Virus record (IMG/VR): IMGVR_UViG_3300021979_000003
Coordinates: 175,091 to 239,090 of that record
Reading direction: 5' to 3' (one strand)
Length of the DNA: 64,000 nucleotides
Source: a virus
Taxonomy: Duplodnaviria; Caudoviricetes
Shown: in pieces, positions 44,332-46,610 of the stretch
Position numbering within the stretch: the first letter of the stretch is position 1
Layout: every line of letters starts with the position of its first letter
Notes under the pieces: generated by a model
What the model was told of the DNA's origin: nothing
The model's database searches: none
What the model saw: only the letters and a program-made list of their open reading frames with translations
Position numbers and translations under genes: made by a program

Positions 44332-45030
44332 ATGGCTAATAATAACAAAAATATAGAAGATGATGGAATTGATACTTCAAGTTTTAAGTCAAGTCTATCG
44401 GACTATCTATCAAGCTCTAGTATATTGGATAAACTAAAACAATCTCAAGATGATTTTAAAGTTAATACATCAATGCCAAATTATACAGACTATTCGTATG
44501 ATTATGACTACACAACTGCAAGAAAGAATTTAACAAGCACTGGCGGTCCTGTTGGTTGGGGAACTACCACTACGGGAACTACCAACATGGGTCATGTTCA
44601 TACACATACTGGAACGACTAGTATAGGTGGGACTCATACACACAACCTAGTTTATGATTCATCCATGTATCAGTTCTACAAACAGCCATTTTCAAAGGCT
44701 GGATTCATCAATGATGTGATTGTGGCTGGTAACTCTGTGAAGAGACATATCGAATCGCACATAGACAACTATACTGATGATGGTCTAATTGACTGTCTTG
44801 AATTTTGTGATAAGTTCGAACTATTAACCCCCGATTTATTCTGGTATGCGGTAAGCAAAAACCTAGTGTTATATCCTTTGTACACCAAGTACCATGAAGT
44901 AGATAGATGTCTTGAAATTATAGAACGAGAAAAAAATAAAAACATAATTGGGTATACCGCAAAGAATGTCAAAGAAGATATTGAATTCAAACGTGGAGTC
45001 AATAAGTTAAAACTTAAAGGTGTTCTGTGA
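44332..45030 (+). CDS. Hypothetical protein with Thr/Gly/His low-complexity segment
   Basis: ORF track; GAGG RBS. Confidence 0.65.
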   Translation: MANNNKNIEDDGIDTSSFKSSLSDYLSSSSILDKLKQSQDDFKVNTSMPNYTDYSYDYDYTTARKNLTSTGGPVGWGTTTTGTTNMGHVHTHTGTTSIGGTHTHNLVYDSSMYQFYKQPFSKAGFINDVIVAGNSVKRHIESHIDNYTDDGLIDCLEFCDKFELLTPDLFWYAVSKNLVLYPLYTKYHEVDRCLEIIEREKNKNIIGYTAKNVKEDIEFKRGVNKLKLKGVL

Positions 45031-45485
45031 AAATACCTTGGAAGTATTCTCTTATTGAACAAATAACAAATACAACACTTGGCCTCTTTATTGGGGCCTT
45101 GTTTCTGATATTTGTCATAAATCCTATGTTCTCACTATCTCTAACTGTTATTGTGAGTATAGAAGTATCTATCATCATGTTTATTGTAAGCACGATTAGA
45201 GGGCTTCTGATACGTAGACTGTGGATTCGATTTATAGAAGAGAAGCAATCGTTGAGACATAGTTTTGTTGAAAAGTTCATAGACGTTGGTTTGGGACTTG
45301 TCATTGCTACTATTGTTTGGTCGTTCTTCGTAATGCCTGCGTATGATGTGCAGACCACATTCTTCGTAGATTTGTTGATTAACTTGATGTTCTTCTTCGT
45401 GAATCTATTACGCTCTGTAGTAGTTAGAAGATTCTTTGAAATTCATTCACAAAAGTACTTGACAGGAAGTACCCAGACTGTATAA
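45027..45485 (+). CDS. Membrane protein with two tandem homologous units
   Basis: YSLIEQITNTTLG..RRLW repeated as HSFVEKFIDVGLG..RRFF. Confidence 0.65.
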   Translation: MKIPWKYSLIEQITNTTLGLFIGALFLIFVINPMFSLSLTVIVSIEVSIIMFIVSTIRGLLIRRLWIRFIEEKQSLRHSFVEKFIDVGLGLVIATIVWSFFVMPAYDVQTTFFVDLLINLMFFFVNLLRSVVVRRFFEIHSQKYLTGSTQTV

Positions 45486-45486
45486 T
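45459..45486 (+). promoter_or_regulatory. Consensus sigma70 promoter TTGACA-N16-TATAAT
   Basis: Perfect hexamers at 45459-45464 and 45481-45486. Confidence 0.8.
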
Positions 45487-45504
45487 TGAACACAGTTAGC
45501 GCTA

Positions 45505-45773
45505 ATAGGGAATGTAATTCCCGAGTAGATAATCATGGCAATTCAAGTTCCAGATTATTATATTATGGAGTTTTCATCCGGTTTAGATATATAAAATACT
45601 AGATTTAATATATTATTAAACACTAACATATATCTATTAGCTAGATGTTAACAAGCAACTGATTGGGTTAAATTTATAGACACTATCATAGAATATATAT
45701 TCTATAATACTTATAAAAAGTGTCGAATCTGGGAGCCGCGACTCAGTTGTTTCATGTTATCTACTTCCCCTAT
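45505..45773 (+). ncRNA. Candidate structured non-coding RNA or long structured leader (unknown class)
   Basis: Nested long-range complementarity plus internal hairpins directly downstream of the promoter. Confidence 0.55.
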
Positions 45774-45794
45774 CTATATTGATATATCAGGACA

Positions 45795-46610
45795 ATGAAC
45801 ATGCGAAACTTTGACGAAATAATTGATTCTGCAACACATGAACTTGTAAAGAGTCATGGCTTTACTGATGAGAACAGTAACGAATATAAAGTATTATTCG
45901 AAGGTAGACGTGCCACACTCCTATCAGATTTCAATGATAAGGTCGATCTTAATAATATAACTGCCCCTGCCCTGAAAGGTGTCAAAGAACTTATCGCCAA
46001 TGGTGTCATTGAAGACACAAAACAAACTGCGGTGGTATCGTTTTCGAGTTTAATGGCTGGTCAGTTTATCCACTTAGTTAACTTCATCAAAGACAATGAC
46101 GAGCTTAAATATCATCAGCTTCATAATAGGTCTAATATTCTTATTGAAAATCTAACACCTTTTAAAGCTCTGCAACTTTCTGAGCTATTGAAAAATGATC
46201 TTGTATACTTGACTCTCAGTCTGAAGTACCTTGAGAAGTATGCTGAGTTGGTTCAAAGTAAAGTAATAACCATCAGTACTGATGGCAAGCTTTACAATAA
46301 AAATAAGACATATAAGATCAATGTTCGCGTAGCAGCAAATGTTCCTGCCGCCGAGGCAAATAGACGTAAAGATCATTATGCTGACGTTATTCTAAGACTA
46401 TCCAAAGGTCTAAAAGAAAAAGGCTATGATGCAATGATCGGAACATCAGGTGGTAATGTCGGTCACTCATTGACAATGTACACTGATGATATTCCATCAC
46501 TTAATATTTTTAAGCTATATCGTCTTGGTAATATTAGTATTGGTGTACGTGACGATCTTAAGATGGTAACGGATGAAGAGTTTGTAGGTATTTTCAAAGA
46601 CCTCTTATGA
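45795..46610 (+). CDS. Hypothetical protein following the structured element
   Basis: 271-aa ORF; AGGA RBS (start 45795 or 45801). Confidence 0.7.
   Translation: MNMRNFDEIIDSATHELVKSHGFTDENSNEYKVLFEGRRATLLSDFNDKVDLNNITAPALKGVKELIANGVIEDTKQTAVVSFSSLMAGQFIHLVNFIKDNDELKYHQLHNRSNILIENLTPFKALQLSELLKNDLVYLTLSLKYLEKYAELVQSKVITISTDGKLYNKNKTYKINVRVAANVPAAEANRRKDHYADVILRLSKGLKEKGYDAMIGTSGGNVGHSLTMYTDDIPSLNIFKLYRLGNISIGVRDDLKMVTDEEFVGIFKDLL

Follow-up and report, generated by a model that had tools for sequence, protein, structure and literature searches.

The last 64 kb of a 239-kb IMG/VR record (IMGVR_UViG_3300021979_000003; hereafter the window, 64,000 nucleotides, to which all coordinates refer) encode, directly upstream of an orphan gene, a real, strand-specific and highly structured RNA that lies outside the described RNA families. 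This RNA of about 280 nt contains a genuine pseudoknot, has its own consensus promoter and is tightly linked to the orphan gene (Table 1). Judged from its sequence, it is probably either a control element or a partner of that gene.

The genes of the window include a family B DNA polymerase, type II topoisomerase subunits, ribonucleotide reductase and baseplate proteins. The DNA polymerase of the record shares 61% identity with that of the 440-kb Salicola phage SCTP-2, while the next nearest sequences, from other T4-superfamily jumbo phages, share ~37%. On the basis of this gene content and polymerase similarity, we assign the source to an uncultured SCTP-2-like jumbo phage rather than to a cell. 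CheckV estimates the record to be 54% complete; at that value, 239 kb would correspond to a full genome of ~440 kb.

Compensatory changes define a pseudoknotted core

Homologues of the RNA were reached via the downstream protein. Close relatives, given with their protein identities, are L003 (an IMG/VR contig; 88%), L005 (90%), L006 (73%) and the near-identical L007, with identical copies in several Sequence Read Archive (SRA) assemblies. The full leader could be aligned among these relatives, the RNA of L006 being cut off by the contig end. An exhaustive HMMER search of 1.84 billion cluster representatives yielded only five further, distant proteins (23–40% identity), and the contigs of four were informative. 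L012, L014 and L017 are not alignable to the window with nhmmer, yet they carry the same core just upstream of the homologous gene, in the order Px, UU, (U)GGGUUAA(A/C), loop, G(G/A)AGCCG, 4–7 nt and Px 3' strand. A covariance model of the core finds these three loci at E-values of 3e-5, 1e-4 and 0.03.

The covariation anticipated for homologous intergenic regions was found. The core alignment, which was fitted to the covariance model and hence leans somewhat towards structure, has 97.4% of its cells paired and double-sided changes in 10 of 24 pairs; none of 500 column shuffles reached any of five measures, and sliding the partner strand by 1–3 columns left 30–44% paired. In the basal helix, Px, all 8 pairs show double-sided, compensatory changes and 96.9% of cells are paired, with GCAACUGA/UCAGUUGU in the window, GGGUAUG/CAUACUC in L012, CACGGUAAU/AUUGCCGUG in L014 and ACUGGG/CCCAGU in L017. 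The adjoining P5 helix reads GGUU/AGCC in all 8 distinct sequences; one of its invariant pairs is U.G, for which the minus strand would have a C.A mismatch. In the long-range closing helix, P2, pairing persists with sequences that are unrelated from lineage to lineage (L003; L005; L014, GUAAGCGUA/UAUGCUUAU; and L017, UGUCGUC/GACGACA).

P3 joins the 3' half of the core loop to a strand far upstream and, because it crosses Px and P5, is a true pseudoknot. Its sequences are UUCCAGAUU/AAUCUGGGA in the window, UUCCAAC/GUUGGGA in L014 and UUCGAGC/GCUCGGA in L017. Three of its 7 core pairs, at positions 4, 6 and 7, show fully compensatory Watson–Crick changes, and all 7 stay intact in six sequences. 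The upstream strand always starts with UUC and always follows an A-rich linker of 8–9 nt behind the closing helix; equivalents of the window's linker stand at the same place in L003 (UAGAAA(G)), L014 (ACGAGAA(A)) and L017 (AAAUAAAA(G)). Since a run-length test was uninformative in AU-rich sequence, P3 was judged by duplex energy: in each lineage the P3 site is the best duplex partner across the upstream region, and shuffled sequences equalled it in 18, 61 and 2 of 500 trials. Every pairing listed by the first-pass annotation of this DNA is present where it had been placed, and its suggestion of a helix crossing the others was correct, but the roles of the strands differ: the core hairpin consists of Px and P5, and P3 is the helix from loop to upstream strand.

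The plus strand has a minimum free energy (MFE) of -69.5 kcal/mol, against -54.4 +/- 3.8 for dinucleotide-shuffled controls (z = -3.95; 0 of 100 shuffles as good), while the minus strand reaches z = -2.71. The closing helix and the core hairpin also emerge when L014 and L017 are each folded independently by MFE. We take the plus strand to be the RNA strand on account of the invariant U.G pair in P5, the G.U pairs in P3 and Px, and the lower plus-strand z-score.

The leader is 76% identical in L005 and 89% in L006, compared with 55% and 48%, respectively, at synonymous third positions of the adjacent gene, and this excess places the leader under purifying selection. In L006, the RNA is also more conserved than codon positions 1 + 2 of the protein gene (82%). 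In L003, the leader is 70% identical versus 75% at synonymous third positions, with many indels and compensated changes.

These data bear on the possibility that the gap encodes no functional RNA and consists of inverted repeats arisen by chance in an AT-rich spacer, of an element acting at the DNA level, or of a coding region that has decayed or is very small. The region has a GC content of ~30%, at which hairpins are frequent, and the distant homologues individually fold no better than shuffles (z about -1 to 0). Against this stand the compensatory changes in Px, P3 and P2 across lineages and the conservation of the RNA above synonymous sites. A DNA cruciform is disfavoured by the invariant U.G pairs, which make the structure strand-specific, and a coding remnant by indels that are not multiples of three. 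The 19-codon mini-ORF (open reading frame) singled out by the first-pass annotation is present in the window but is not conserved, L003 having no ATG there. The non-functional reading is largely refuted, and we regard it as very improbable.

Table 1. Features of the RNA element, its promoter and the genes downstream, in window coordinates
Feature	Coordinates	Strand	Description
sigma70-type promoter	45459-45486	+	-35 TTGACA 45459-45464; 16-nt spacer; -10 TATAAT 45481-45486; 12/12 match
5' mini-hairpin GUUA-GCGC-UAAU	45495-45506	+	G.U becomes G-C in L005 and L007
P1 local hairpin GGGAAU-GUA-AUUCCC	45508-45522	+	Strands 45508-13 and 45517-22; window-type lineage only
P2 5' strand AGUAGAUAA-u-CAUG	45524-45537	+	Long-range closing helix with 45753-45765
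A-rich linker GCAAUUCAAG	45538-45547	+	~8-9 nt, P2 to P3; equivalents in L003, L014 and L017
P3 5' strand UUCCAGAUU	45548-45556	+	Pseudoknot helix with 45726-45734, crossing Px and P5
Variable domain	45557-45651	+	AU-rich hairpins (UUUAAUA/UAUUAAA, UAACAU/AUGUUA, others); 66-131 nt; sequence not conserved between lineages
Px 5' strand GCAACUGA	45655-45662	+	Basal helix of core hairpin, with 45743-45750
Conserved UUGGGUUAAA	45663-45672	+	GGUU 45666-69 is the P5 5' strand and pairs with AGCC 45734-37
Hairpin inserted in core loop	45679-45724	+	GACAC 45679-83/GUGUC 45720-24 around AUAGAAU/AUUCUAU; window-type only; A-U becomes G-C in L003
P3 3' strand AAUCUGGGA, P5 3' strand AGCC and invariant G	45726-45738	+	P3 strand 45726-45734; conserved GRAGCCG
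Px 3' strand UCAGUUGU	45743-45750	+	Partner of 45655-45662
P2 3' strand CAUGUUAUCUACU	45753-45765	+	Partner of 45524-45537
Leader tail	45766-45800	+	Pyrimidine tract UCCCCUAU, small hairpin, Shine-Dalgarno AGGA 45789-92
269-aa orphan protein	45801-46610	+	N-terminal helices and two predicted ferredoxin-like alpha/beta domains; C-terminal domain basic
CDA-fold deaminase, 117 aa	46663-47016	+	Intact HAE and PCxxC motifs
Pol-beta-type nucleotidyltransferase-like protein, 255 aa	47013-47780	+	NTP_transf_2/RlaP clusters; Atlas feature score 0.95; no Pfam match

Promoter and boundaries of the leader

The perfect sigma70 promoter of the first-pass annotation (TTGACA-N16-TATAAT) held up: its 12/12 match is unique within the 4.2 kb scanned, and both hexamers are kept in L003, L007 and L014 with a spacer that is variable. 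From the promoter position, we infer a transcription start at about 45492–45495. The stop codon (45483–45485) of the upstream DUF7220 gene (45027–45485) falls within the -10 box. In L003, another gene precedes the promoter, with an intergenic spacer, and homology to the window begins at the -35 box.

The gap itself, annotated as ~310 nt, was upheld, no conserved ORF being present from 45486 to 45800. The start of the downstream gene was revised: because all homologues align at ATG 45801 (M-R/K-N/T-F-D-E-I-I; MRNFDE in the window versus MKTFDE in L003), we take this codon, preceded by the AGGA motif, rather than 45795 as the start, which shortens the predicted protein from 271 to 269 aa. The untranslated stretch from the inferred start (~45493) to this ATG is ~307 nt. 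In all lineages, the 3' end of P2 lies ~22–50 nt from the start codon and is followed by an A/U-rich tail.

The 5' extension, consisting of the mini-hairpin and P1, is restricted to the window type, whereas P2 of L014 begins at the predicted transcription start. Counterparts of P1 are GGGA-GAAA-UCCC in L003 and GGGAA-UGAACU-UUCCC in L005. P1 is mutually exclusive with the outermost helix proposed by the first-pass annotation, AUAGGG (45505–10) with CCCUAU (45768–73). Both strands of that helix exist, but the U-to-C change in L005 and L007 strengthens the 5' mini-hairpin while breaking an AUAGGG/CCCUAU pair; comparative support is weak, and we consider the helix doubtful. The pairing may be an alternative state.

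Positions 45496–45505, ~+3 to +12 of the predicted transcript, form a perfect 10-bp DNA palindrome, TTAGCGCTAA; L014 has the related AAGCGTAAT at the same place, and the 5' end of its RNA, GUAAGCGUAAU, is related to the palindrome of the window's mini-hairpin. The palindrome could be a DNA operator instead of, or besides, an RNA mini-hairpin.

The hairpin inserted in the core loop is absent from L012, L014 and L017, in which the loop is 13–14 nt long. For the L012-type RNA, the contigs do not cover the 5' part beyond ~165 nt upstream of the gene. Three independent assemblies of this type (L012 1–166, L013 and L044) stop at the same point, which lies within the variable domain, ~165 nt ahead of the orphan gene; assembly may break there at a repeat, in a hypervariable segment or at a physical end of the genome.

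No intrinsic terminator is conserved in the interval from the RNA to the gene. A terminator-like alternative hairpin at 45729–45746 (CUGGG...CUCAG, then UUGUUU) would exclude P3, P5 and Px; as neither L005 and L006 nor the distant lineages conserve it, it is probably incidental. L014 has a run of six U between the 3' strand of the closing helix and the ribosome-binding site (1095–1113), which is not conserved in other lineages and at which some termination or pausing might occur.

Distribution of the RNA and its gene

In every lineage with upstream DNA (window type, L012, L014 and L017), the core lies just upstream of the gene family on the same strand, down to a protein identity of 23–30%. 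The homologue in L015/L016, by comparison, has a 112-nt leader without the core, and the RNA is absent from its 4.9-kb context. Since this leader lacks the core, the protein can exist without the RNA nearby, as is the case with regulatory leaders.

The element is single-copy: nhmmer with filters off and the covariance model, run over the 239-kb record, found only the element itself. The RNA is absent from the 440-kb genome of SCTP-2 (MF360958.1), in which gp119 (349 aa) is a weak homologue of the C-terminal domain of the orphan protein (22% identity, E = 1e-4) and stands behind a 64-nt gap. Neither blastn nor tblastn with the orphan protein matched any of 50,697 records of cultured phages. Within IMG/VR, exact and degenerate DNA patterns retrieved only the second contig already known, so that two IMG/VR contigs carry the motif; the 17 loci retrieved with a looser core pattern all lack a Px helix and are chance or coding matches (best covariance-model E-value, 0.57), and protein-based scans with the distant homologues gave nothing. 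A metagenome scan added one N-terminally truncated gene without upstream DNA, and a scan of genome contigs for further homologues added none.

Relationship to known RNA families

None of the 4,227 models of Rfam 15 matched the 64-kb window at gathering thresholds; the models covered include 6S, tmRNA, RNase P, signal recognition particle (SRP), group I/II introns, riboswitches, self-cleaving ribozymes, GOLLD, ROOL, HEARO, OLE and Y RNA. At E-values up to 10, the segment 45400–45850 gave only two chance-level scores, for STnc430 (22 bits versus 47 needed) and a small nucleolar RNA (18 versus 70). ARAGORN found no tRNA or tmRNA gene in the window, and 45300–45900 contains no tandem repeat, which a ToxI-like RNA (type III toxin–antitoxin systems) would have. 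These searches bear out the earlier view that the RNA has no tRNA, tmRNA, RNase P, SRP or group I signature and belongs to no described family.

The first-pass annotation had offered a 6S-like RNA polymerase decoy or a double-stranded RNA (dsRNA)/defence decoy as examples of a function. A structured phage RNA with a strong predicted promoter is compatible with either, and nothing more specific is. The RNA is a multi-helix pseudoknot and not a long rod with a central bubble, it matches no 6S family in Rfam, its longest uninterrupted helix (~9–10 bp) is too short for a dsRNA mimic, and a decoy would not be expected to stand always as the leader of a single gene family. A decoy role is scarcely credible on these grounds. 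With retron msr–msd, Y RNA/YrlA and 6S RNAs, the element shares a long-range 5'/3' helix around internal hairpins and the placement of an RNA directly upstream of a co-occurring protein; it differs from them in that this protein is neither a reverse transcriptase nor Ro60-like and in that no Rfam Y RNA or 6S model matches.

Closer parallels are found among cis-acting leaders. The T4 gene 32 leaders, and leaders of the gene 43/regA type, are likewise pseudoknotted 5' leaders of T4-superfamily phages that lie tens of nucleotides upstream of the ribosome-binding site of one gene and are conserved with that gene. Here, however, the RNA is 4–6 times larger, has a closing helix and a four-helix core and shows no sequence similarity to them, and the downstream protein, with two predicted ferredoxin-like domains, has no recognised OB fold and no Pfam or PHROG match. 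Nothing in the AlphaFold2 model of the protein or in its fold matches (generic ferredoxin, Z 6–7) points to gp32, although a fold search that does not list gp32 is no strict exclusion. Ribosomal-protein leaders (the S15, S4 and L20 pseudoknots; S6:S18) are also cis-acting pseudoknotted RNAs that co-evolve with a gene, have a narrow distribution and are lost in some lineages; the protein here, in contrast, is not ribosomal, and its S6-like and other ferredoxin-fold matches (Z 6–7) are generic.

Pseudoknotted riboswitches (SAM-II, preQ1-II/III, fluoride, ZTP and THF) resemble the element in the pairing of a loop with a distal strand, an A-rich strand beside the pseudoknot helix, covarying stems, few invariant junction nucleotides and a location in the 5' untranslated region (UTR). 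The element departs from them in having no Rfam match, a single gene context, no defined expression platform and a much larger size. By the features tested, it is a member of none of these groups, and its nearest functional analogues are the autoregulatory pseudoknotted leaders of phages and bacteria and the pseudoknotted riboswitch aptamers.

A catalogue of 10,006 candidate structured RNAs has been derived from IMG/VR (Fremin, Bhatt and Kyrpides 2023, PMC10690425); it draws on the same viral contigs and concerns the same class of object, structures that are conserved and lie immediately ahead of phage genes. Phage leaders of the T4-family kind are reported to be absent from Rfam (PMC10690425). 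Because only two IMG/VR contigs carry the motif, its inclusion in a covariation-based catalogue of IMG/VR is unlikely.

Downstream protein and operon

The AlphaFold2 model of the 269-aa protein is of high confidence (pLDDT 87). The protein belongs to no Pfam or PHROG family, and fold searches with the model (PDB Foldseek, AFDB clusters, VIA-align wide and ESM Atlas) returned only generic ferredoxin-like similarity, with Z up to 7.3; an Atlas search by features yielded no usable hit. Its isoelectric point (pI) is 6.4 overall and 9.7 for the C-terminal domain. Two candidate identities were rejected. A sub-threshold Pfam match to SieB (E = 0.0055; 16.8 bits versus a cutoff of 26) was taken to be spurious. 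A reverse transcriptase or retron, prompted by the sequence MYTDD, had no RVT match at E up to 0.01; YTDD is replaced by FCDT, FCDE, FCNE or YCDE in homologues, and in the fold searches the protein is not reverse transcriptase-like.

The orphan gene is followed by the deaminase gene in every lineage with sufficient downstream DNA, and by the third gene in the window type and L012; the same operon gene order is seen in L005, L006, L007 and L012. The deaminase gene and the gene for the 255-aa protein overlap by 4 nt. Assignment of the 255-aa protein as a Pol-beta-type nucleotidyltransferase is a lead only. The 117-aa deaminase is much shorter than the T4 dCMP deaminase.

Candidate functions

Because the fold ends 22–50 nt before the ribosome-binding site and no terminator intervenes, we consider the RNA to be made as the 5' leader of the orphan–deaminase–nucleotidyltransferase operon. 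The consensus sigma70-type (early-type) promoter would drive a transcript whose first ~280 nt fold into a compact pseudoknotted RNA. In this fold, P2 brings the RNA ends together, Px stacks under P5 to form the core hairpin, and the 3' half of its loop pairs with the UUC... strand behind the A-rich linker to give P3, with the variable AU-rich domain tolerated between P3 and Px. A trans-acting factor might then bind the folded core and alter translation initiation or mRNA stability. The likeliest factor would be the operon's first protein, which would amount to autogenous control, as for T4 gene 32, gene 43 and the ribosomal-protein leaders.

Tentatively, and by analogy with these systems, we prefer the reading that the RNA serves as an operator in cis, with a trans-acting factor, probably the first protein of the operon, bound to it. 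This reading would explain both the one-to-one association of RNA and gene and the loss of the RNA in one lineage. The predicted ferredoxin/RRM-like alpha/beta domains of the orphan protein and the basic pI of its C-terminal domain are consistent with such a role, and there is precedent in the pseudoknotted gp32 leaders of T4-family phages (PMC10690425, PMC535899). Several observations weigh against an operator. At 200–300 nt, with a four-helix pseudoknotted core, the RNA exceeds typical protein operators in size and elaboration; no conserved element sequestering the Shine–Dalgarno sequence could be defined, only weak pairings between it and the pyrimidine tract being possible; and the orphan protein is near-neutral overall, with no recognised RNA-binding domain. 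In addition, the comparison comprises three or four deep lineages only, and homologues were found via the protein, which biases the RNA–gene association.

Alternatively, the element may be a stable trans-acting non-coding RNA that is processed out of the leader, most plausibly as the RNA subunit of a ribonucleoprotein (RNP) with the 269-aa protein, so that the neighbouring gene would encode its partner and not be its target. The size and complexity of the RNA fit this reading, the 12/12 promoter suggests high output, paired 5' and 3' ends with variable insertions within a conserved core are typical of stable non-coding RNAs, and RNA and protein co-occur strictly across deep divergence. The greater conservation of the RNA than of codon positions 1 + 2 in the L006 comparison and the novel predicted protein fold with RRM/ferredoxin-like modules also fit. 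On the other side, there is neither a terminator nor a recognisable processing site between RNA and gene, the protein is not basic overall, and both the L015/L016 homologue and the weak SCTP-2 homologue gp119 occur without such an RNA, in the latter case in the whole genome. We consider an RNP subunit unlikely, though still a serious contender. A switchable leader and an RNP with the downstream protein, both raised by the first-pass annotation, remain the two leading readings.

The core of a new riboswitch class would recognise a small ligand, perhaps a nucleotide or nucleobase derivative tied to the deaminase/nucleotidyltransferase operon, and thereby control translation. The general features of a riboswitch aptamer are found here, namely conserved, covarying stems and a few invariant junction or loop nucleotides (UU-GGGUUAA, GRAGCCG), together with peripheral domains of variable length. 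An operon that encodes a CDA-fold deaminase and a Pol-beta-type nucleotidyltransferase-like protein, with the RNA in its 5' UTR, would suit such a switch, and the possible competition of P1 with AGGG/CCCU beside the pyrimidine tract could be its platform. However, this competition and the weak, non-conserved pairings of the Shine–Dalgarno sequence with pyrimidines are the only platform candidates, and neither a conserved platform nor a conserved terminator was found. Moreover, the unpaired nucleotides include few that are invariant, no Rfam riboswitch matches even at E up to 10, and the RNA precedes one gene family in a rare phage clade, whereas riboswitch classes normally precede several gene types, and do so in cells. 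A riboswitch therefore has, in our view, a small chance of being correct.

Finally, the RNA could be catalytic or protective: as a ribozyme, it might cleave itself and so trim the 5' leader, or, as a nuclease-resistant structure at the 5' end, it might stabilise an early mRNA. The core is a compact pseudoknot, has invariant nucleotides and lies at the very 5' end of an mRNA, as would suit either purpose; P2 of L014 starts essentially at the predicted transcription start, and self-cleaving ribozymes are common in phage genomes. At E up to 10, none of the Rfam models for hammerhead, twister, twister-sister, pistol, hatchet and HDV-like ribozymes matches; a signature of a cleavage site cannot be named, and a simple stabiliser would not need such conservation. 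The chance of a catalytic or protective role appears slim.

Implications

Large structured RNAs with conserved pseudoknots are rare and have repeatedly led to riboswitches, ribozymes and RNP machines, and RNA elements have been little explored in jumbo phages. The element described here is rare, being known from a handful of metagenomic contigs, which limits its general impact. The combination of a covariation-backed architecture, a consensus promoter and a fixed partner of novel predicted fold makes it directly testable even though the phage is uncultured.

Taken across mechanisms, it is conceivable, if somewhat unlikely, that the element represents a functional RNA class that is new and restricted to jumbo phages of the SCTP-2-like kind, whether as a ligand-sensing riboswitch, a ribozyme or an RNP subunit with the 269-aa protein. 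As an RNP, it might act with the deaminase and the nucleotidyltransferase, for example on host or phage RNA or on nucleotides early in infection. A riboswitch, ribozyme or RNP RNA would each constitute a new class. If the element is instead an autoregulatory leader, as we tentatively favour, it would widen the paradigm of T4 gene 32 so as to take in an unrelated gene and a much more elaborate RNA.

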